From Patescibacteria group bacterium (GTDB lineage: Bacteria; Patescibacteriota; Minisyncoccia; Phycocordibacterales; Phycocordibacteraceae), in NCBI GenBank assembly GCA_040390125.1, contig JAZJYZ010000001.1, positions 243,026 through 307,025 on the forward strand: a DNA stretch of 64,000 nucleotides, in the 5' to 3' direction. Below the pieces are notes generated by a model. That model did no database searches and was not told the DNA's origin. It worked only from the letters and a program-made list of their open reading frames with translations. The position numbers and the translations under genes are program-made. Below are positions 1 to 58,991 of the stretch, piece by piece (position 1 is the stretch's first letter; every line of letters starts with the position of its first letter).

Positions 1-397
1 GCTCAACGACTGGATTTATTATTGATTTCTTGCCGTCTTTCTCACTGACTTTCCCACGAATCCGCACCAGCTCATCTACTGGAAACATTTTTGCAAGATA
101 GGGTTGGTGAAACCACACAATACGCATTTTCCCCGTGTCGTCGTTGAAGGTGCCTTCTGCCATAGGCACCTTAGTTTTCCATGAACGTTTCATTTCAAGC
201 TTTGAGAATTTCCCATAGAGTGTTGCCACTTCACTGTCTCGTGCATCAGACACCGTGCGTATATCTGCCGCTGACTCATAACGCACAGGAAAGTGATAGA
301 GCAAATCTCGAATGCTTGTGATACGCAGACGTTTTAGACCTGCACGCTGGATTTGTGTAAGACGAGTGAGAGAGTCAATGGACTCGTTTGCATTCAT
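1..397 (-). CDS. recG: ATP-dependent DNA helicase RecG, N-terminal part (gene continues beyond window start)
   Basis: The reverse-complement translation starts MNANESIDSLTRLTQIQRAGLKRL...FPVRYE. This matches the RecG N-terminal wedge-region motif (P-x-RYED). The ATG is at 397 and the frame stays open to the window edge. It is absent from the ORF track because it is edge-truncated. Confidence 0.55.
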   Translation of the reverse strand, partial: MNANESIDSLTRLTQIQRAGLKRLRITSIRDLLYHFPVRYESAADIRTVSDARDSEVATLYGKFSKLEMKRSWKTKVPMAEGTFNDDTGKMRIVWFHQPYLAKMFPVDELVRIRGKVSEKDGKKSIINPVVE

Positions 398-3100: not shown

Positions 3101-3118
3101 GAATTAAATAAAGGAACT

Positions 3119-3150
3119 AAAAATGGACGCCCTTTGGGCGTCCATTTTTA
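3119..3150 (-). terminator. rho-independent terminator downstream of the cyclophilin gene
   Basis: aaaatggacgcc-cttt-gggcgtccatttt hairpin, with a T-run on the minus strand. Confidence 0.7.
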
Positions 3151-6796: not shown

Positions 6797-6853
6797 CCCA
6801 CATTCATTCTAGTGTTTTGCAAAACACTAGAATGAATGTGGGGGCAGTTTTTT
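6797..6853 (+). terminator. strong rho-independent terminator (perfect 22-bp inverted repeat) after glnII
   Basis: cccacattcattctagtgtttt-gc-aaaacactagaatgaatgtggg followed by gcagttttttg. Confidence 0.8.
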
Positions 6854-8810: not shown

Positions 8811-8820
8811 ATTCTAGGAA

Positions 8821-8850
8821 AAATTCCCGACTCATGTCGGGAATTTTTTT
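8821..8850 (+). terminator. rho-independent terminator after 7894..8739, first of three consecutive hairpins
   Basis: aaattcccgac-tcat-gtcgggaattt followed by a T-run. Two further perfect palindromes follow it: 8859-8892 (caaaactatacgat-caa-tcgtatagttttg) and 8900-8933 (ttctgaaaattacca-cat-ggtaattttcagaa). Confidence 0.75.
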
Positions 8851-17865: not shown

Positions 17866-17897
17866 GATATAATAAAAAATCCCCCGAATGGGGGATT
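17866..17897 (+). terminator. rho-independent terminator after pilA
   Basis: aaaaatcccccgaatgggggattttt hairpin followed by a T-run. Confidence 0.8.
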
Positions 17898-17946
17898 TTT
17901 ATTTTTATACTCTGAGTCGCTATTCTCACGGGGTATACTTCCCTCT

Positions 17947-19467: not shown

Positions 19468-20163
19468 ATGAAGAAAATAGAAAATAGAAAGTTGAAAGTA
19501 GAAAGACTGCCAAACAGCAGGGGATTCTTCGTTTTTTCCTCTACCTTCTACTCTCTACCTTCTACTCTCTCAATCAACGTGAAGCGAGGCTTCACGTTGA
19601 TTGAGATGATGGTTGCAGTGAGTATCTTTGCAATAGTTATGATGGTGGGAGTCGGTGGCCTTTTATCCTTAGTTGCTACAAATCATCGTGCACAAGCAAT
19701 TCATTCGGTTATGAATAACTTAAGTGCAGCAGTTGAAGGAATGTCTCGCTCAATTCGGGTCGGCACCTTGTATAAATGTGTTACCTCTGCCACCACACCA
19801 CCGTCTGCTCCTCCTCCCTCAACAATTGCAACACCAGAGGATTGTGCATCGGGCGGCGCTCATCTTTTAGCGTTCGAATCATCAACGGGGGAACTTACCG
19901 ATCCAAACGACCAAGTGGTGTATCGGTTAAATGGCACACAATTAGAACGCTCTTTGCAGGGTGGAGCGAATGGTAGTTGGATAGCAATTACCGCTCCCGA
20001 GGTTTCAATTGATAGCTTTGATTTTTATGTTATTGGCTCTGCAAAAGGAGACGGAATACAACCTCGTGTTCTTATGCGTATTATTGGTTCTGCGGAGGTG
20101 CCGGGGGGCACAACCACATTTACGGTGCAAGCAAGCGTCGTTCAGCGAGTTTTGGATATATGA
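19468..20163 (+). CDS. minor pilin with prepilin N-terminus; probable true start GTG at 19579
   Basis: A GTG at 19579 is in frame and gives the canonical MKRG|FTLIEMMVAVSIF. The upstream annotated codons lie in word-repeat DNA (gaaaatagaaaatagaaag; ctaccttctactctctacc). Confidence 0.6.
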   Translation: MKKIENRKLKVERLPNSRGFFVFSSTFYSLPSTLSINVKRGFTLIEMMVAVSIFAIVMMVGVGGLLSLVATNHRAQAIHSVMNNLSAAVEGMSRSIRVGTLYKCVTSATTPPSAPPPSTIATPEDCASGGAHLLAFESSTGELTDPNDQVVYRLNGTQLERSLQGGANGSWIAITAPEVSIDSFDFYVIGSAKGDGIQPRVLMRIIGSAEVPGGTTTFTVQASVVQRVLDI

Positions 20164-20780
20164 AAACAGTGAACAGTGTACAGTGGGCAGTGTATAGAAT
20201 GAAAATCAAGAATTTTTTCACATGGCTTTTCCCTGTTCACCATCCACTGAACACTGTTCACTCAATCAAAGTAAAAGCACTTCGTGCTTTTACTTTGATT
20301 GAGACGTTTGTTGCAATCACTGTTTTGTTGATTTCTCTGGTGGGTCCTTTATCTATTGCTGCACAGTCACTTCGTTTGGCATATTACGCACGTGACCAAG
20401 TGACAGCTTTTTATCTCGCTCAAGAGGCTGTTGAGTATGTCCGTGCTATGCGGGATCAAAATTATCTTGCTACTCAAAATTGGCTTACGGGCATTGATGA
20501 TTGTGTTAATGCGTCCTGCGTTGTTGATTTTCCTAACTTCACGCATCGCACCTGCGGTGTACTTAGTGCGTGCCCTGCAGTTCACGTGAGTACGGCGACG
20601 ATGCTCTATAACGAAGACACAGTAAGTGGGCCTGCATCTCCCTTTACCCGCATCGTGTCCATTACTCCTATTGCTGGAACTGTCGACGAGGTAATTGTCA
20701 CCGTTCGTGTATCGTGGGTCTCAGTGGGTATCAGCCGATCGTTTCAGATTACAGAGCATCTCTTTAACTGGGCAGGATGA
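20160..20780 (+). CDS. minor pilin-like protein (Ala at -1)
   Basis: ...KALRA|FTLIETFVAITVLLISL with Glu at +5. The annotated 5' end overlaps word repeats (gtgaacagtgtacagtgggcagtg). Confidence 0.55.
   Translation: MKTVNSVQWAVYRMKIKNFFTWLFPVHHPLNTVHSIKVKALRAFTLIETFVAITVLLISLVGPLSIAAQSLRLAYYARDQVTAFYLAQEAVEYVRAMRDQNYLATQNWLTGIDDCVNASCVVDFPNFTHRTCGVLSACPAVHVSTATMLYNEDTVSGPASPFTRIVSITPIAGTVDEVIVTVRVSWVSVGISRSFQITEHLFNWAG
20163..20260. repeat. word array in inverted halves (gtgaacagtgtacagtgggcagtg ... ctgttcaccatccactgaacactgttcac)
   Basis: Seen directly in the sequence. It overlaps the annotated start of the third minor pilin. Confidence 0.7.
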
Positions 20781-35695: not shown

Positions 35696-36631
35696 ATGGA
35701 CGTCATTAAAGAAACAAATTTTGAAGGGTTAGGAAAGAGAACACAGGGGAAGGTGCGGGATATTTATGAGCAACCGGCACAGCTTCTTTTGGTGACGACA
35801 GACAGGCACTCTTCGTTTGATAGAATTATTGCTCATATCCCACACAAGGGTGCAGTACTGAACCTAATAAGTGCGTTTTGGTTTGAACTTACGAAAGATA
35901 TTGTTCCCAATCAACTCATTGAAGTGCCCGACCCGAATGTGATTGTTGCCAAGCGAGCAGAGCCTTTCTTGGTGGAGGTAGTAGTGCGTGGATATTTAAC
36001 TGGTGTTACGGATACTTCTATATGGACTAATTACCAAAAAGGGAAGCGTGATTTTGGTGGCATTACACTCCCCGACGGCATGACAAAAAATATGCCACTT
36101 CCTCGAGCAATCATTACGCCAACAACAAAAGCAGGACATGACGAGAATCTAGAACTCTCAGAAGTAGTACCACGGGGTCTTGCGACTGCAGAGCAATGGA
36201 ACGAAATGCAGAAAGCGGCACTTGCTTTGTTTGCTCGTGGGCAGGAGCACGCATCGTCAAAGGGATTTATCCTCGTTGATACAAAATATGAATTCGGACT
36301 CTTTGACGGAAAAGTAATTCTTATAGACGAAGTGCACACGCCTGACAATTCACGTTACTGGCTCAAATCCTCTTTTGAAGAGCGTATTGCGAAAGGGGAG
36401 GAGCCAATGGCTTTTGATAAAGAGTTTTTACGTATTTGGTTTAAAGAAAATTGCGATCCATATAACGATGCCACTCTGCCAGAGGCTCCTACAGAAATGG
36501 TGACTGAGCTTTCTCGCAGGTACATTGAAATATACGAAACCCTTACGGGGACTAAGTTTGTAGTTGATGAGAGCGTGCCACCGCTGGAGCGGATGGAGAA
36601 AAACCTTGAGAAATATAAAACCTCCGCTTAG
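35696..36631 (+). CDS. purC: phosphoribosylaminoimidazole-succinocarboxamide synthase PurC (long form)
   Basis: Matches the SAICAR synthetase family (RDIYE...LLLVTTDRHSSFDR; VDTKYEFG). Confidence 0.85.
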   Translation: MDVIKETNFEGLGKRTQGKVRDIYEQPAQLLLVTTDRHSSFDRIIAHIPHKGAVLNLISAFWFELTKDIVPNQLIEVPDPNVIVAKRAEPFLVEVVVRGYLTGVTDTSIWTNYQKGKRDFGGITLPDGMTKNMPLPRAIITPTTKAGHDENLELSEVVPRGLATAEQWNEMQKAALALFARGQEHASSKGFILVDTKYEFGLFDGKVILIDEVHTPDNSRYWLKSSFEERIAKGEEPMAFDKEFLRIWFKENCDPYNDATLPEAPTEMVTELSRRYIEIYETLTGTKFVVDESVPPLERMEKNLEKYKTSA

Positions 36632-36644
36632 CGGAGGTTTTTAT
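36617..36644. terminator. bidirectional rho-independent terminator overlapping the purC stop codon
   Basis: aaaacctccgc-ttag-cggaggtttt. The stop codon TAG lies in the loop, and there are A/T runs on both sides. Confidence 0.75.
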
Positions 36645-40334: not shown

Positions 40335-40955
40335 ATGCTCACTCTTGAGACTCTCAACTACCTGATTGCCGTAAGCACTATTGGGATGCAAGTAGCATCC
40401 GTAGCACTTTTGGTAGTGTTCTTCTTTAGAAAAAGCCCATGGGCTCGAGGTATTGCTGAGCTCGTTACCAACTGGGGTTTGTGGGTTTCTTTGCTCCTCG
40501 TTGTAGCTGGTACTCTACTGAGCTTAGTGTATTCAGAATATTTCGGTATTGTGCCGTGCGGTCTTTGTTGGCTTCAGAGAGTCTTCCTCTATCCGCAGGT
40601 TGTCTTGTTTGCGTTGGCTACTTGGAAAAAAAGCGAACTGCTTCGCTTTTTTTCCGGTGGCGAAGCCAAGCGCCAATATTCGCAAAGCGAAAAGGCACTA
40701 GGAGGGACAAATGATTCCTTTTTTGCAGATTATTCAATTGTGCTTTCATTTTTAGGTGGGGCAGTTGCACTGTATCAACATTATTTACAGATGGGTGGAA
40801 CAAGTGCACTGCCTTGCCCAGCATCAGGCGTTACGGATTGTGCAAAGCGATTTCTCTTTGAATTCGATTACATCACATTTCCACTCGTTGCGTTCTCTTC
40901 GTTCGCACTTCTTTTCGTCATAATGCTTTTTGTACGACAGAAGCGAGCTACGTAA
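40335..40955 (+). CDS. DsbB-like disulfide bond formation protein
   Basis: Four TM segments. PCGLCWLQRVFLYPQ resembles the DsbB CxxC...QR...Y loop, and there is a second Cys pair (CPASGVTDC). Confidence 0.55.
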   Translation: MLTLETLNYLIAVSTIGMQVASVALLVVFFFRKSPWARGIAELVTNWGLWVSLLLVVAGTLLSLVYSEYFGIVPCGLCWLQRVFLYPQVVLFALATWKKSELLRFFSGGEAKRQYSQSEKALGGTNDSFFADYSIVLSFLGGAVALYQHYLQMGGTSALPCPASGVTDCAKRFLFEFDYITFPLVAFSSFALLFVIMLFVRQKRAT

Positions 40956-43503: not shown

Positions 43504-43535
43504 AAAAAGCGAGGCAGGGAAACCTGCCTCGCTTT
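43504..43535 (+). terminator. rho-independent terminator closing the unannotated 43114-43500 region
   Basis: aaaaagcgaggcagg-gaaa-cctgcctcgcttttt. Confidence 0.8.
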
Positions 43536-43590
43536 TTGTTATTGGTTAGTAAAGTCAATAATGGCCTCCAGAGAGTGGTAAAATGCTCAT

Positions 43591-44455: not shown

Positions 44456-44716
44456 TTGTATACTTTTTGTATGAGTATGTATACCCGTGATGGCTGTCCG
44501 GTTACTCGTGATATCCGTATGATTCACGGTGGAGCGGGGCAGGGAGGAGCACCCTATGATTCTGAAATCAGACCGCCTCTGTCCTTGAAGCAACAAGCCG
44601 TACAATACAGAAACAAAGCCGATGTGCTTGCTCATACGGGGCAGCATAAGCTTGCATTACTTTTTCGATCTATGGCTAATGCCATAGATCCGATTGCAAA
44701 GAAAAAGACCTCTTAA
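44456..44716 (+). CDS. hypothetical small protein (uncertain)
   Basis: 86-aa ORF in a 330-nt intergenic region, followed immediately by a bidirectional terminator. No homology was recognised. Confidence 0.25.
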   Translation: MYTFCMSMYTRDGCPVTRDIRMIHGGAGQGGAPYDSEIRPPLSLKQQAVQYRNKADVLAHTGQHKLALLFRSMANAIDPIAKKKTS

Positions 44717-44726
44717 GAGGTCTTTT
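44703..44726. terminator. bidirectional rho-independent terminator
   Basis: aaaagacctctt-aa-gaggtctttt. Confidence 0.7.
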
Positions 44727-44744: not shown

Positions 44745-45224
44745 TCATTCCGTCACCACTAGTGTGCCCCACATACCCATGGAGCGGTGACTCCCTACGG
44801 AGCAGTAGTATTCGAATGAGCCCACTTTATCTGCGACAAACTCTACCACCGCACTCTCTCCACCTCCAATTTTGCTCGTTGCAACATTGAATTCGTCAAT
44901 TTTAAAATCATGCATACCGCCGGAGTTCACGAAGGTAATTTTCACTCGGTCACCTGCTCTAGCACTGATTGCTACAGGGGCAAAGGAAAAATTTGAACCA
45001 GTAATAGTGAATTCTTTAACACGTGCGGTTGGTGCCTCACTCATGACTTCGGCTTTAATTTCACCTGTTTCCATACCTCCAGGGGGAAGTGTGGGAGTTT
45101 CCTCGGTGACTACAGGTTCGGCAACGTCCTCAATCGAAGCTGGTGGGTTTTGCGAGAAGTAATACCAACCGCCGAAAGCTAGAACGATAACAACTATCAG
45201 AATGATGGTTGATTTTTGTTTCAT
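44745..45224 (-). CDS. cupredoxin (type-1 blue copper, plastocyanin/azurin-like) protein, membrane-anchored; start trimmed to MKQKSTIIL
   Basis: Copper ligands lie in ...H...YYCSVGSHRSMGM. The annotated longer ORF (to 45341) runs into the conserved structured element. The internal Met gives a TM anchor. Confidence 0.65.
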   Translation of the reverse strand: MKQKSTIILIVVIVLAFGGWYYFSQNPPASIEDVAEPVVTEETPTLPPGGMETGEIKAEVMSEAPTARVKEFTITGSNFSFAPVAISARAGDRVKITFVNSGGMHDFKIDEFNVATSKIGGGESAVVEFVADKVGSFEYYCSVGSHRSMGMWGTLVVTE

Positions 45225-45250
45225 AGTTACAGTAAAGCACATCGTACCTC

Positions 45251-45357
45251 TCGCACTACCTTTGGCGAAACATTCGGCTTCTCCTCTGGAAGCCTTATTC
45301 GTCCTCGCACCGATTTCCCACCCAAGGTGGGAACCCAGCAATCGGTACTGCGGATGT
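45251..45357. ncRNA. conserved ~107-nt structured element, copy A (candidate cis-regulatory RNA or small structured repeat); orientation unresolved
   Basis: It is about 85% identical to 56547-56653. The terminal 10-bp inverted repeats ttggcgaa.../...ttcgccaa form a closing helix. The internal hairpin ttcccacc-caag-gtgggaa versus ttcccgct-caaa-gcgggaa shows two compensatory pair changes. It lies directly upstream of the cupredoxin start. Confidence 0.55.
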
Positions 45358-45492
45358 TCGCCAAAGGTAGCACTCGTTTTTAAAGTTCGAAATTCTAGGG
45401 TTTTGCCGACACGGTGGTGCTATGTTATACTTTTCCTACTTGTATGATTTTAGTATCTACAGAATAATAATTACTACTATAAAAATATTGCT

Positions 45493-49906: not shown

Positions 49907-49957
49907 ACCCCCTGTATAGTATAAAATCACGGTCGTGATTTTATACTATACAGGGGT
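49907..49957. repeat. palindromic hairpin element, copy 2 (same arms as 46131..46193)
   Basis: cccc-ctgtatagtataaaatcacg-gtc-gtgattttatactatacag-gggg. Confidence 0.8.
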
Positions 49958-54495: not shown

Positions 54496-54525
54496 AAAAA
54501 CCCGAAAGCTCGCTTTCGGGTTTTT
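54496..54525 (+). terminator. rho-independent terminator
   Basis: aaaaacccgaaagc-tc-gctttcgggttttt. Confidence 0.8.
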
Positions 54526-54540
54526 GTATACAATATATGT

Positions 54541-55362
54541 ATGACGCAACACACGTTTTCTTCTGTGGGGGGATTCCGAACGATAGTGCGAACCTTTTTC
54601 AAGAGTAACGGAAGACACAATTTGCCATGGAGGAATACCCGTAACCCGTATCGTATTTTGGTATCAGAAATAATGCTCCAGCAAACGCAGGCTGATAGAG
54701 TAATTCCGAAATACAAAGCATTTCTGAAAAAGTTCCCGACAGTGCACACACTTGCACAGGCACCCCTTGGTGAAGTCCTCCGGGAATGGCAAGGCTTAGG
54801 CTACAACCGACGAGCCAAAATGCTTCATGGAGCGGCAAAAGTCATTGTTGAAAAGCACAAAGGCACGGTTCCGCTTCTTTACAATGAGCTTATTCAATTG
54901 CCGGGGGTAGGGGATTATACGGCAAAAGCAGTTCGTGTCTTTGCATGGAACAAACCGGAAGTAATGATTGAAACCAACATCCGTAGCGTTTTTATTCATC
55001 ATTTTTTTCCAAATAAGGTTGGAGTGGGTGATGAAAATTTACACCCATATATGGGTGAGGTTTTAGATACAAATAATCCTCGGGAGTGGTACTCGGCATT
55101 AATGGATTACGGGAGTTATTTGAAAAAGACACTACCCAATCCATCACGAAAAAGTGTACATCATGTAGCACAAAAACCCTTTAAAGGCTCTGATAGGGAG
55201 ATACGGGGAGCTCTCCTTCGTCTGCTTTCAAAAAAATCCTCTAGCGTTGAGGATTTATATGAATTACCCTTTCAAAGGTTACGGATTGATACGCAAATAA
55301 AAGCTCTTGTGAAGGAAGGTTTCATAAGGAGTCGAGGGTCACGATATATGCTCCAGAGTTAA
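54541..55362 (+). CDS. MutY/Nth-family HhH-GPD glycosylase (MutY-like N-terminal domain only)
   Basis: ILVSEIMLQQTQADRVIPKYKAFLKKFP...WQGLGYNRRAKML...LPGVGDYTAKAV closely follows the MutY catalytic-domain pattern. There is no FeS cluster or NUDIX-like C-terminus. Confidence 0.65.
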   Translation: MTQHTFSSVGGFRTIVRTFFKSNGRHNLPWRNTRNPYRILVSEIMLQQTQADRVIPKYKAFLKKFPTVHTLAQAPLGEVLREWQGLGYNRRAKMLHGAAKVIVEKHKGTVPLLYNELIQLPGVGDYTAKAVRVFAWNKPEVMIETNIRSVFIHHFFPNKVGVGDENLHPYMGEVLDTNNPREWYSALMDYGSYLKKTLPNPSRKSVHHVAQKPFKGSDREIRGALLRLLSKKSSSVEDLYELPFQRLRIDTQIKALVKEGFIRSRGSRYMLQS

Positions 55363-56516
55363 CGGGTGTCTTTGATCCGAAGTGAAATAGGAATACCTAA
55401 GAAAAGTATCGCACCGAAGACCGCAAACACGTATTCAAAAGGGGCATAAAAAAGAACGATACTACCGATCACTGGTCCGACTATCACCCCACACTGCCGG
55501 AGCACTCGAAATACGCTGATAAGCTCGCTGTCTTTGGCACCCACTTTTTTGAAAAAATATGTTTCGGTTGCGATTTCAAGGAGTGCTGCGCCGATCTGGG
55601 TTCCAATCACTAGGAGTGCAAGGACAAGGAGACCAGTCCCTTCGGCGAAGGCGAGCATAATGAATGCGATTCCGGAAATGACAAAGCCCGCAATGATGAA
55701 TTCTTTCTCGCCGAATTTCTTGTCAGCGAGGAAGCCGACAGGCACCTGAAGCAGGATAAATGGCAGTATTGAGAAGGCGAGTATTGTGCCGATCATGCTC
55801 CACGGCAGACCCGCATGGTTATGGAGATACAGTGGGATGTAGATACCGCTCCATATGAACAGAAGTTGGAGCAAGAAGTTTGCACCCATGACTGCAGTGA
55901 GGGACCGGTTTTTCAGAATTGAATCAATCGCTTCCTTCAGATGCATGTTGGTGTGCTCGACGTGGGTGATGCCAGAGAAGAATCTGAATGCTATGTATGC
56001 ACATGCCGCAAACGCCCCCGCTGCTATGAGGAACATCCTCCAATACTCACTATCAGTAAGGGTTGCAGCGATGATGAGCGATGATATGGCGACTGCCATA
56101 TTGCTTGCGGTCAGAAATATCGCTCGTGCCGAACCAGTTCCTTCTTCTTTTTGTCCGACGATTTTCTCTAATACGACGTCAAGTCCGAGGGCTACAATCC
56201 ACCCTGAAACCCAAGCGATTGCAAAAAGTGGAAGAACTAGCACATCTGAAAGATCTAATGAAAGTCCGATAAGTGCGAGTGCTGCGGCACATGCGGCCAC
56301 TATGAGTACCCGGTGCGTTCGCCACTTGCGAAATAGGTGTGGAGTGTGAAGCATCATGAAGCCCGCAAGGATTGATGCCCCGGAGAATATAAGACCCACG
56401 GCAGATTCGGGTATGTATTGTGCCAGGAATGTAGAGTAGACGAAGTAGGGGAGGTAGACCCCTACGGCTCTGAGGAAGTTCCCTACATGTATTGCGTTTG
56501 CGGAGAAGTATTTCAT
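55359..56516 (-). CDS. MFS transporter; start trimmed to MKYFSANAIHV
   Basis: Twelve TM helices. The annotated start at 56561 extends into the conserved structured element, so the internal Met at 56516 is preferred. Confidence 0.7.
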   Translation of the reverse strand: MKYFSANAIHVGNFLRAVGVYLPYFVYSTFLAQYIPESAVGLIFSGASILAGFMMLHTPHLFRKWRTHRVLIVAACAAALALIGLSLDLSDVLVLPLFAIAWVSGWIVALGLDVVLEKIVGQKEEGTGSARAIFLTASNMAVAISSLIIAATLTDSEYWRMFLIAAGAFAACAYIAFRFFSGITHVEHTNMHLKEAIDSILKNRSLTAVMGANFLLQLLFIWSGIYIPLYLHNHAGLPWSMIGTILAFSILPFILLQVPVGFLADKKFGEKEFIIAGFVISGIAFIMLAFAEGTGLLVLALLVIGTQIGAALLEIATETYFFKKVGAKDSELISVFRVLRQCGVIVGPVIGSIVLFYAPFEYVFAVFGAILFLGIPISLRIKDTR

Positions 56517-56546
56517 TTGCTCTAGTATAGCGTGTCGCTCGGATTG

Positions 56547-56653
56547 CTTTTGGCGAAGCATTCGACTTCTGCCGCGGAAGCCTTATTCGTCCTCGCACCA
56601 ATTTCCCGCTCAAAGCGGGAACCGAGCAATCGATGTTGCGGATGTTCGCCAAA
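56547..56653. ncRNA. conserved ~107-nt structured element, copy B; orientation unresolved
   Basis: See copy A. It lies directly upstream of the MFS start. It is followed on the plus strand by an intrinsic-terminator-like hairpin at 56673-56705 (tgtgcaacct-cagg-aggttgcaca + atttttg). Confidence 0.55.
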
Positions 56654-56972
56654 AGCAACCCTCGCTCTCAAGTATGTGCAACCTCAGGAGGTTGCACAAT
56701 TTTTGAGACGGGCACTAGAGAGGCTCGACGTCTTTCAGCGTTCTCTCCTTCGGCATCCACGATCCGCCTTTTGCACAATAACTGTATAGGTAGGTGAGGT
56801 GACCATCTGCGTGTCGAAGCGTATGTGTTGCAAAAACGGTGTGATGAAATTCACAGTAGCGAGGTAGTCGCTCTCGCCAAGGTTCTTTTGATTCGATCAT
56901 GGTATTAAAACACTTACGCCGGAGTGAGTTTCTCCAGCCTGAGTTGTTTCCCTAATCCTAGTATCCGGCAGA

Positions 56973-58991
56973 TTAAACTCCGATGAGGACAGGGATGACC
57001 ATAGGCCTTTTTGAAGTCTTTTGGAAGAGGTAACGCTCGACGGTGTCGGTGAGGTTGGTCTTTATGTACTCCAAGTCCACCGGATTCATGCCTGCTGCCA
57101 AATCTTCCGTCGTCTTCTTGATGAGGAGTCGTGTCTCCGAGAGGAGTCCTTGAGATTCCCTAAGGTACACGAATCCTCGAGAGATGATGTCGGGCGATTT
57201 TTTGAGGGTGCCTGTTCGCAAGTTTACAGTTGCGATGATGACGAACATACCATCTTGCGCCAAAGACTGACGATCTCGTATAACAACCTCTTGCATGTCG
57301 CCGATGGAGAAGCCGTCTACCATCATTGGGTTCGCTGGAACTTTTTCTTTTCGGACCGTCATGGTTGTTCCGTTTTCAATTTCTATGATGCTTCCGTTAT
57401 CTGGAAGTACCACGTTCTCTTTAGGGAAGCCTGCAGCGATTTGTGCATTCGCATGGTATTTGAGCATTGAGAAGTAGCCGTACGCTGGCATGAAGAATGT
57501 TGGATTTACTTGCTGACGCATCCAGACAAGCTCTCCTGTGTTGCCGTGTCCTGTGGAGTGCACGTCTGATGAGCGATAATGAATTAAGGATACGTTGTGA
57601 CGCAAGAGATTGTCTTTGAGTTTCTGTACCCGCACTTCATTACCTGGAATAACCGAAGAAGAAAGGATGATGGTGTCACGTTCAGTAAACGCAATATTTT
57701 TGTGTTTTTTTGTGGCGATACGCATCAGGGCTGCGGTGTCTTCGCCTTGTGAGCCTGTTGCGATTATGACGATGCGATCCGCTGGGTAGTCATTGATGTC
57801 TTCTGCACGAATCATCGTACCTGGCTTTGGTGTGAAGATATTTGCACGCTGAGCGATTTCGATGTTGGTTTTGATTGATCTGCCTTCGGTTATGATCTTC
57901 TTTCCGAGGTTCTCTGAGGTCTTGATGATGTGAATCATGCGTTCGAACTGCGAAGAGAAGGTGCCGATGATGAGGCGTCCCTTTACTGACTTGATGATGT
58001 CTTCGAGTGTCGTGTATACACGTGACTCAGGAATTGAAAATCCATCTCTTTCGGCGTTCGTTGAGTCTGCAATAAAGATAAGATTTTTATCACGACCGAG
58101 TCCTCCCCAGGTCTTTTCTTCTTTTGATGTTGGGATGCCGTCCTCGTGCTCCAAGCGTAAGTCTCCAGAAATGATGATGTTGCCGTGTTTGGTATGAATT
58201 GAAAGACCCATGGCGTCTGGAATGGAGTGAGTTACCGGAAACGTCTTTACGATAACTGGCTCTCCACCTGGCAAGCTTACCGAAACACTTCCTCCTGGTT
58301 CAATGACTCGAAGGTCAATGTCAGCAATATGTGGAAATTCTTCCTGCCGTCGTTTAATCATCAAGCTGGTGAGGTATTGCGTGTAGATAGGCGGGTTTCC
58401 AATTCGGTCGATGATGTACGGAATACCACCGATGTGGTCGAGGTGTCCGTGCGTAATGAAAACGCCGAGGATTCGGTCTTTGTTTTCTTCGAGGTAGCGA
58501 GTGTTTGGGAGGATGTAGTCGACTCCTGGCGTTGCTTCTTCGGAAACAAACTGAAAGCCGACGTCAGAAATAATGATGCCTTGTGGTAATTCAAAGATAA
58601 CCATGTTGCGACCCACTTCTTCAACACCGCCTATCGGTATGATGCGAACCGTATCTTCGTTGAGTGGAGGAAGAACGACACGGTCGACTGCACTCATGTC
58701 TCTCTCCGTGAGCTCTCGAGGCGGAGGGGTTGCACGCATTGGACGATTATTGGAGCGTGGTCGTTGGTGTCGTCTAGGCCCGTGTGCTGAGGGCGAACCT
58801 TGTGGGCGCCTTGGTCCTCGTGAAGGATGGGGTCTGCTCGTTGGTGTGCTTGGTCTTGCGGAGTGACTTGCTGGTCTCCCTGGTAGCGCATTAAAAGGGC
58901 GTGCACGGCCAGTTCGAGGGCCTGTGGAGCTTCGTTGAGGGCGTGATGGTTGCTGTGGGTTAGACCCTCGCGGTGGTAGTGGTGTATTCAT
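56973..58991 (-). CDS. rnj: ribonuclease J (metallo-beta-lactamase / beta-CASP) with ~100-aa Pro/Arg/Ser-rich N-terminal extension
   Basis: HxHxDH motif ITHGHLDHIGG, plus beta-CASP and C-terminal domains. Confidence 0.85.
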   Translation of the reverse strand: MNTPLPPRGSNPQQPSRPQRSSTGPRTGRARPFNALPGRPASHSARPSTPTSRPHPSRGPRRPQGSPSAHGPRRHQRPRSNNRPMRATPPPRELTERDMSAVDRVVLPPLNEDTVRIIPIGGVEEVGRNMVIFELPQGIIISDVGFQFVSEEATPGVDYILPNTRYLEENKDRILGVFITHGHLDHIGGIPYIIDRIGNPPIYTQYLTSLMIKRRQEEFPHIADIDLRVIEPGGSVSVSLPGGEPVIVKTFPVTHSIPDAMGLSIHTKHGNIIISGDLRLEHEDGIPTSKEEKTWGGLGRDKNLIFIADSTNAERDGFSIPESRVYTTLEDIIKSVKGRLIIGTFSSQFERMIHIIKTSENLGKKIITEGRSIKTNIEIAQRANIFTPKPGTMIRAEDINDYPADRIVIIATGSQGEDTAALMRIATKKHKNIAFTERDTIILSSSVIPGNEVRVQKLKDNLLRHNVSLIHYRSSDVHSTGHGNTGELVWMRQQVNPTFFMPAYGYFSMLKYHANAQIAAGFPKENVVLPDNGSIIEIENGTTMTVRKEKVPANPMMVDGFSIGDMQEVVIRDRQSLAQDGMFVIIATVNLRTGTLKKSPDIISRGFVYLRESQGLLSETRLLIKKTTEDLAAGMNPVDLEYIKTNLTDTVERYLFQKTSKRPMVIPVLIGV

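Follow-up and report, generated by a model that had tools for sequence, protein, structure and literature searches.

The 64-kb stretch of Patescibacteria DNA analysed here (its full length is called the window), part of a 749-kb contig of a Patescibacteria/Parcubacteria MAG, carries on its minus strand a row of genes in which RNase J is followed by a small zinc-ribbon-like open reading frame (ORF) and by an MFS transporter gene. Between the small ORF and the MFS gene lie a 24-nt hairpin and a structured element, designated copy B; a second copy of the element, copy A, lies before the gene for a secreted cupredoxin. An earlier reading made from the letters of the window (the sequence-only reading) had taken the hairpin beside copy B as a sign of plus-strand transcription or as a terminator borne by the element. 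Coordinates are collected in Table 1, and loci of relatives are denoted by L and a number.

Copy B and the element that had been placed at 45251-45357 proved to be one element, as the sequence-only reading had proposed. They have in common invariant blocks of 24 nt and 16 nt, each found exactly twice in the window (0 and 0.6 occurrences expected, respectively), and a covariance model run over the 64 kb returned only copies A and B. When the limits were refined with the help of diverged copies, both came to 127 nt; the earlier placing of copy B was thus right as to the element but not as to its start at 56547, which clips 9 nt. The element is bounded by CGAG at either end, and all four full copies (two in the window, one each in L011 and L023) measure exactly 127 nt without any indel. 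A third CGAG is internal to the element, and the conserved sequence runs past the first CGAG on the 5′ side. The full copy of L011 (that of L012 is identical) lies 5′ of the MFS orthologue, which encodes a protein with 84% identity, and that of L023 lies on a 316-kb contig, 5′ of an unrelated hypothetical gene without a Pfam domain.

The copies of L011 and L023 came from look-ups of the contigs with MFS orthologues plus one metagenome scan. With an improved pattern, the metagenome scan gave one true copy (L023) and nine chance matches. In a genome collection, the pattern CATCCGC-N-GAGGACGAATAAGG gave four chance matches and no true copy, an absence that is weak evidence since the pattern was of the window type only (CATCCGC, GAATAAGG) and blind to copies of the L011/L023 type. 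When the whole window was searched against Rfam 15 at the gathering threshold, only a tRNA was found. No family match was obtained for the two window copies and those of L011 and L023, searched on both strands at E up to 10; the permissive output consisted of spurious matches to miRNA, snoRNA and the istR hairpin, far below threshold. Full-text literature searches did not yield a description of the element. Viral contigs, searched with two patterns and the covariance model, yielded no copies, and a phage origin is therefore unsupported. Peptide coding within the element was considered and rejected, as the reading frames are unlike between copies, and likenesses to 5S rRNA, the sarcin-ricin loop and the glnA type were superficial word matches with no model match.

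The fold is a three-way junction closed by a 23-bp P1 helix (17 + 6 bp), with junction strands of 2, 13 and 0 nt; its parts are listed by alignment column in Table 1. Over the four full copies, 97.7% of the cells are standard pairs, and both sides have changed in 15 of the 43 pairs. When the partners were slid by 1-3 columns as a register-shift control, pairing fell to 34-48% and almost no double changes were seen. The same helices were found independently by RNAalifold without a supplied structure. Invariant columns are more frequent among unpaired positions (33 of 41) than among paired ones (49 of 86; p = 0.010). The unpaired positions are purine-rich on the gene-sense strand, and the junction nucleotides are nearly invariant. 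The arms of P1 are complementary in each copy, yet unlike between copies at 11 of 22 pairs. Such a pattern of pairing and conservation is, as far as four sequences can tell, what marks a nucleic acid whose structure is selected for. The element is a previously undescribed, portable 127-nt structured RNA module, so far found only in a narrow clade of Parcubacteria (Patescibacteria).

Two additions to the fold were tried and rejected. A pseudoknot of the 7-nt bulge with the P3 loop or with the CGAG flanks gave registers that were inconsistent among copies and showed no covariation. A derivation of the outer part of P1 from the neighbouring hairpin (GUGCUACC resembling GUGCAACC) was true of copy A only, and GTGCAACCT-like words are frequent in the window (25 against 14 expected); on both grounds the idea was dropped.

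Fixed size, invariant junctions and varied gene neighbourhoods are typical of ribozyme classes at their first appearance. All these are seen here, together with a three-way junction, invariant junction purines, varied stems, truncated copies and a P1 of about two helical turns in every copy. A new small self-cleaving ribozyme, or a small RNA excised by cleavage at the P1 stalk, is nevertheless highly improbable: no Rfam ribozyme model matched, and the junction strands, in length and in sequence, misfit the hammerhead core CUGANGA / GAA / H when compared by hand.

On the gene-sense strand, minus in the window, the cells that depart from Watson-Crick pairing comprise 11 G·U pairs and 4 mismatches; on the plus strand the two numbers are reversed (4:11). 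The RNAalifold consensus energy was −66.7 kcal/mol for the minus strand against −62.6 kcal/mol for the plus strand, with covariation terms of −7.5 and −5.1, respectively. The G·U counts and the energies favour the minus strand without being decisive. The element always lies 22-25 nt upstream of an ATG and is always co-oriented with the gene. The genes so linked, at three loci only, are unrelated: the MFS transporter, the cupredoxin and the Pfam-less hypothetical. In every copy a −10 box stands between the element and the ATG. The MFS promoter is of the leaderless type, and 56523-56528 reads TAGTAT on the plus strand. The 3′ flank is near-identical in copy B and L023 (CGAGCGACACGYTATACT) despite the different downstream genes, which indicates that the −10 box travels with the module. 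In copy A the −10 box is weakened to TTTACT (45231-45236), with TGC before it. On the 5′ side, the flank of copy B read on the plus strand is CUCUCAAGUA, which is U-poor; the other copies have CUUUUAAG or UUUUUAAAG.

Window-wide, a Shine-Dalgarno sequence is almost missing (1 of 59 gene starts by a crude call), and a TATACT/TATAAT box precedes the ATG of many genes by 6-9 nt. To judge from these sequence features, most of the organism's mRNAs would seem to be leaderless.

The position of the element before a transporter gene and a copper-protein gene, co-oriented with both, together with its covarying stems and near-invariant purine-rich junctions, recalls a conventional riboswitch, that is, a leader aptamer that would control MFS and cupredoxin in response to, for example, a metal or a metabolite of oxidative stress. 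The P1/P2/P3 topology, the invariant junctions and the downstream transporter are indeed shared with three-way-junction riboswitches of the purine and TPP type; the MFS gene belongs to a conserved oxidative-damage cluster, and RNAalifold offers an alternative junction pairing (columns 24-25 with 73-74). We consider this explanation quite unlikely, since no expression platform was found. A terminator after the element on the sense strand, an anti-terminator and masking of the start site were all looked for and not found. Duplexes between the element and the start region were no better than those of shuffles, and there was no signal of P1 sequence tracking the start region; when the full length is folded, the 23 bp of P1 remain paired and the AUG is left unpaired. 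Moreover, the P1 of riboswitch aptamers has 4-8 bp, the genome makes no use of Shine-Dalgarno sequences, the −10 box stands between the element and the ATG, and the third linked gene is an unrelated hypothetical; over the three loci, too few for a judgement, no coherent regulon is seen. Orthologous genes manage without the element, which is dispensable and decays freely, and no Rfam family matched even at the permissive E value.

The hairpin next to copy B has the sequence that the sequence-only reading had described, with 10 perfect pairs and a 4-nt loop (tgtgcaacct-cagg-aggttgcaca) and a T-tailed end on the plus strand. Its restriction to copy B was borne out as well, in that no comparable hairpin was found beside copy A or beside the L023 copy. 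The predicted energy is −15.3 kcal/mol (z = −4.3), and 1 of 200 shuffles was as stable. The hairpin stands 20 nt from the end of the element as first drawn and, counted from CGAG, at a distance of 10 nt. The region has 5 terminator-like matches in all, against 4.2 expected by chance; the hairpin is judged to be above chance because it is conserved at orthologous loci, and not from this count. A 24-nt TGTGC-N14-GCACA hairpin lies 7-51 nt past the stop of the small ORF at five of five loci, its centre covarying and its ends conserved. It is present in L013, which is without the element, and in L010 and L026, which hold wrecks of the element; L011 and L026 carry two TGTGC...GCACA hairpins each. 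Being kept where the element is absent and missing beside copy A and the L023 copy, the hairpin belongs to the locus rather than to the element, and the notion of an element-borne terminator was given up.

The suggestion that the hairpin implies plus-strand transcription fared no better. The T tail on the plus side occurs in the window only, and none of the six homologous hairpins in L010, L011, L013 and L026 has one; the better T run of the relatives is on the gene-sense side (7 of 8 positions in L013, 5 of 8 in L010), where the window has 3 of 8 (UACUUGAG, a poor tail). The nearest plus-strand gene stops at 55362, 1.3 kb upstream of the hairpin, and no other plus-strand terminator-like hairpin was found between 55362 and 56675. 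The usual terminators of this genome are perfectly symmetric A5-stem-T5 palindromes, usable both ways. The hairpin shares with the intrinsic terminators of the genome a perfect GC-containing stem-loop with a T run and an intergenic position at the end of a gene row; it differs from them in that the T run is on the plus side only, a side on which no gene ends nearby, and its conserved TGTGC...GCACA ends and 24-nt length across genomes are not needed by a plain terminator. To judge by its sequence, it looks like a half-degenerate member of the symmetric terminators. The best explanation appears to be that the hairpin is older than the module and separate from it, a terminator-type end of the row of RNase J and the small ORF. 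It would then have lost the U tract of its sense side in this genome, the tract remaining on the plus strand only, so that efficient termination here, if there is any, would act on plus-strand RNA. Read-through from the HhH-GPD gene or a plus-strand transcript of the element are conceivable sources of such RNA. Plus-strand transcription is thus possible, as the only canonical U tail at the window locus lies on that strand. It is also possible that the hairpin is a transcription-factor operator or a −35/−10 promoter (TTGTGC-N17-CAYAYT), while the covarying centre of the palindrome speaks for a hairpin over either of these. As an inherited feature of the locus, the supposed terminator beside copy B cannot be used as evidence on the element.

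A further explanation, close to the sequence-only reading, takes the element for a self-contained gene of a small RNA (sRNA) encoded by the plus strand, with the near-palindromic −10 box, read in reverse, as its promoter and its transcript folding into the mirror three-way junction and ending with P1 and a U-rich tract; in copy B, whose U tract is degenerate, the adjacent AUUUUUG hairpin would take over. On the plus strand a TAnnnT hexamer is found 6-9 nt before CUCG and P1, or 16 nt in copy A: TAGTAT in copy B and L023, TATTAT in L011 and L026, TATTGT in L010 and TACAGT in copy A. P1 is followed by CUCG and then by UUUUUAAAG, CUUUUAAG or CUUUUUAG in copy A, L011 and L023, with CUCUCAAG in copy B, and a T5-tailed hairpin follows copy B alone, where the U tract is degenerate. 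A terminator of stem, spacer and T run has a precedent in the window (6797-6842), and such a gene would account for the fact that the element is accompanied by the −10 box and the 5′ flank. Nevertheless, the ratio of G·U pairs to mismatches (11:4) and the RNAalifold energy favour the other strand, and on the plus strand pyrimidines would prevail in the conserved unpaired segments. The locus had the hairpin ancestrally, and a plus-side T tail is missing from it in L010, L011, L013 and L026. A free-standing gene would not need the constant orientation to a gene start that is seen at three independent loci, and TAnnnT matches, forced by the near-palindromic TATAMT-A box, are common in AT-rich promoter DNA. 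We regard the sRNA gene, with the takeover by the hairpin in copy B, as rather doubtful.

The element is variably present at orthologous sites. At the MFS locus it is intact in the window and in L011, has an internal deletion in L010 (40.7 bits), survives in L026 as the 3′ half only (22.0 bits) and is absent from L013 and L027. L011 carries in addition a 5′ half copy (47.5 bits) and a further remnant. In L011 (1021-2160) the gap between RNase J and MFS has grown to about 950 nt; in it lie two TGTGC...GCACA hairpins, an oppositely oriented ORF of 78 aa, the half copy, the remnant and the full copy; by its sequence the region looks like a local hot spot of rearrangement. At the cupredoxin locus only the window has the element, and all five relatives (L005, L006 and L008 syntenic; L007 and L025 partly so) are without it, the profile search having found nothing in them but the shared promoter flank; L025 and L010 come from the same genome. 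Recent insertion into such 'empty' cupredoxin sites was suspected. Remnants of the element core at L005, L006 and L008, for which a profile search was run against shuffled controls, were rejected because only the shared promoter flank was similar. In a relative with the L023-type locus the gap is 42 nt, too small for the element. The window copies share CAUCCGCA, GAAUAAGG and the pair GGCGAA:UUCGCC, where L011, L023, L010 and L026 have CAUUCGCA, GAAUGAGG and CACGAA:UUCGUG; from these shared substitutions we infer that within a lineage copies either spread or become homogenised. Copy B and L011 have about 88% identity in the core, amid intergenic DNA that cannot be aligned. Across the sequences compared, the module is portable and dispensable, yet strongly conserved where it is intact.

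Such a distribution raises the question of a selfish repeat of the MITE kind (miniature transposable elements with inverted repeats) without RNA function, in which P1 would be the terminal inverted repeat (TIR), CGAG the target duplication, and upkeep would take place at the DNA level, for example by hairpin-templated repair. Presence and absence at orthologous sites, half copies, internal deletions and the remnants piled up at L011 agree with it, as do the CGAG direct repeats that bracket the unit and the outward-facing −10 box, which is also found in Correia elements (PMC2649163). We hold it to be decidedly improbable all the same. The copy number appears low, with two in the 64-kb window and one pattern match reported on the 316-kb contig of L023, and no transposase is nearby. 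The complementarity of the supposed TIR is kept but its sequence is not, the internal single-stranded segments are near-invariant, and the core has stayed alike in copy B and L011 amid unalignable DNA. CGAG was rejected as a target-site duplication, since it is invariant, occurs a third time inside the element and is followed outward by the conserved 5′ flank. Measured against a strict definition of a MITE, then, a conserved TIR sequence and a true target duplication are missing from the module, and variable presence at orthologous sites with truncated or decayed copies is there.

By analogy, the module is most like bcr1, ERIC and Correia, intergenic repeats that are transcribed and keep their structure. 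In the Bacillus cereus group, bcr1 is about 150-155 bp long, with short flanking direct repeats, variable locations and compensatory changes at the RNA level (PMC3184786, citing Klevan 2007 and Kristoffersen 2011). It is like the module in being intergenic and patchy among related strains, in flanking repeats and compensated pairs and in the destabilisation of some copies; it differs in being multicopy and of demonstrated transcription, the module having two copies in 64 kb and a putative transcription. Unlike bcr1, the module has a three-way junction with near-invariant single strands and stands at a fixed distance before leaderless starts; the two have no sequence similarity. Correia elements (CREE) of Neisseria have inverted-repeat ends, carry promoters at either end and are substrates of RNase III when transcribed (PMC2649163). 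They are like the module in being small, with a conserved core, an end promoter for the adjacent gene, a long helix if transcribed and locations that vary; they differ in their conserved 26-bp TIRs, TA target duplication and hundreds of copies (PMC2649163), where the module has a closing helix that varies freely, CGAG as an internal motif and apparently few copies. ERIC, or IRU, of Enterobacteriaceae is an imperfect palindrome of about 127 bp that is transcribed, intergenic and affects the stability of flanking mRNA (PMC3184786). Length, truncations and presence or absence between species are points of likeness, and ERIC differs in being a long hairpin of simple shape, conserved in sequence and flanked by TA (PMC3184786); there is no sequence relationship with the module, and the equal length is a coincidence.

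The reading that we favour, tentatively, is that the module belongs to a leader on the sense strand, acts in cis and is recognised by a trans factor. The module would be transcribed on the gene-sense strand from a start a few nt before P1, giving an alternative, long-leader transcript of the downstream gene with its 5′ end locked in the P1 helix. The length of P1 would suit a substrate of a double-strand RNase or a block to a 5′ exonuclease, and the invariant junction may be a docking surface for the trans factor, for which a protein is more probable than a small ligand. Its action would thus be in cis and post-transcriptionally, on the stability or processing of the leadered as against the leaderless transcript, without a switchable terminator or a start-site mask.

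Several points weigh against this reading. The strand, the 5′ end and transcription itself are all deduced from sequence, as is a role in stability or processing. Only 15 cells that depart from Watson-Crick pairing, over four sequences, inform the strand call (binomial p about 0.06), which is not decisive. A sense-strand −10 box (CAYACT, 6 nt before CGAG) is convincing at the MFS locus only, and no sense-strand terminator was found. With its promoter and U tract, the plus-strand reading is, on paper, the tidier model of a gene. The proximal −10 box is good in three of the four copies, which means that expression of the downstream gene does not require the module. Finally, four full copies are known, from about three genomes, and the distribution is poorly known, the pattern used on the genome collection having been too narrow for L011-type copies.

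Table 1. Positions of the two copies, of their parts and of surrounding features in the window. Parts of the fold are given in alignment columns.
Feature	Position	Strand	Remarks
Copy B of the module	56538..56664	-	alignment of copies; covariance model, 140.2 bits; RNAalifold
Copy A of the module	45250..45376	-	25 nt upstream of the cupredoxin ATG; covariance model, 147.7 bits
5′ flank of copy B	56665..56674	-	sense UACUUGAGAG; family consensus yCACUUAARAG before CGAG; flank alignment
3′ flank of copy B, CGACACGCUAUACUAGAGCAA	56517..56537	-	−10 box TATACT at 56524-56529, 7 nt before the MFS ATG
3′ flank of copy A	45225..45249	-	homologous to the native cupredoxin promoter of element-less relatives
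P1a	columns 5-20 with 108-123		16 bp, plus the pair G4-C124
Bulged base	column 107		between P1a and P1b
P1b	columns 21-26 with 101-106		6 bp
CA dinucleotide	columns 27-28
P2a	columns 29-37 with 62-70
7-nt bulge GCUNGGY	columns 38-44
P2b	columns 45-51 with 55-61		loop UUG
Junction GAGGACGAAURAG	columns 71-83		13 nt, purine-rich; copy B: GAGGACGAAUAAG
P3	columns 84-88 with 96-100		7-nt loop
Hairpin TGTGCAACCT-loop-AGGTTGCACA, 24 nt	56675..56698		TGTGC-N14-GCACA family; outside the module
ATTTTTG tail of the hairpin	56699..56705	+	A5 tract on the gene-sense strand; window-specific
MFS transporter coding sequence, 385 aa, start MKYFSANAIHV	55359..56516	-	NCBI model P0121; orthologue alignment
Small ORF, 61 aa, CxxH...CxxC zinc-ribbon type	56715..56900	-	between RNase J and the hairpin; stop 16 nt before the hairpin
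RNase J	56973..58991	-	upstream member of the same-strand gene row
Secreted cupredoxin (blue-copper fold) coding sequence	44745..45224	-	downstream of copy A
Symmetric A-tract/GC stem/T-tract terminators	1808-1841, 3118-3150, 8819-8848, 17875-17900, 36617-36641
Symmetric A-tract/GC stem/T-tract terminators	40624-40655, 43504-43537, 44703-44726, 54496-54525

The start of the MFS gene was examined with its orthologues. The annotated N-terminus at 56517-56561 had been called almost certainly non-coding by the sequence-only reading, and the alignment confirmed the start at MKYFSANAIHV. The 100% identical NCBI model P0121 begins there, as do the 13 closest orthologues at the homologous MKY[FL]...NAIH; more distant orthologues begin at the homologous position with a variant motif, and nearly all are 382-386 aa long. 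The two longer gene models have unrelated extensions. The 15 extra codons of the longest ORF in the window overlap the −10 box, CGAG and the 3′ strand of P1. Downstream, the MFS gene (minus) and a gene for an HhH-GPD glycosylase (plus) are convergent and overlap by 4 nt (55359-55362) with no terminator between them; the same overlap is found in L010, L011 and L027. Mutual antisense read-through is likely from this arrangement. The oxidative-damage cluster to which the MFS gene belongs includes two HhH-GPD genes, AhpC/TSA, MsrB and MsrA.

The small zinc-ribbon-like ORF, of 57-61 aa, lies between RNase J and MFS at all five orthologous loci (at 3697-3870 in L013 and 4612-4785 in L026, and also in L010 and L011) and is easily overlooked by gene callers. 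RNase J has an N-terminal extension of about 110 aa that is rich in Pro, Arg and Ser (MNTPLPPRGSNPQQPSRPQRSS...), the lengths of its orthologues being similar (654-670 aa). In relatives, the cupredoxin gene is followed by a permease and ATPase pair of the ABC importer type (L008, 3001-4981) or adjoins a MacB-type efflux system and a P-type ATPase (L025, 730-7955); these neighbours give hints of a metal-related role. The downstream gene of L023 encodes a rare hypothetical protein, from which no functional theme can be derived.

Other long hairpins occur in the window. Those at 6797-6842 and 49909-49956 stand at gene ends and have perfect stems of 21 and 22 bp, the first with a 5-nt spacer before the T run. 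On the plus strand, 19568-19606 and 20261-20303 are related long perfect hairpins with stems of 18 and 20 bp and outer arms CTCAATCAA...TTGATTGAG, located in the 5′ parts of the adjacent ORFs 19468-20163 and 20160-20780. In both, the 3′ arm encodes the prepilin-type (G/A)FTLIE and the 5′ arm is its reverse complement in leader-peptide codons; the inner stems differ between the two, with complementarity kept.

The surplus codons of the over-long MFS ORF, which is hereby corrected, are an RNA helix and a promoter. The bacteria of the candidate phyla radiation have tiny genomes and very few known regulatory RNAs, and gene control in organisms whose mRNAs are leaderless and lack Shine-Dalgarno sequences is little understood. 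The module would offer a rare way into the study of regulation by RNA, or of RNA mobility, in these bacteria, and its copying between genes and repeated loss add to its value. It is unlikely that the module represents a new class of sensory or catalytic RNA suited to an organism with leaderless, Shine-Dalgarno-free mRNAs, either a ligand- or protein-responsive RNA that chooses between transcripts or a new ribozyme. Were this true, choosing a leaderless transcript, which can be translated, over a long-leader one, which is non-productive, or the reverse, would be a regulatory logic that has not been described for riboswitches.

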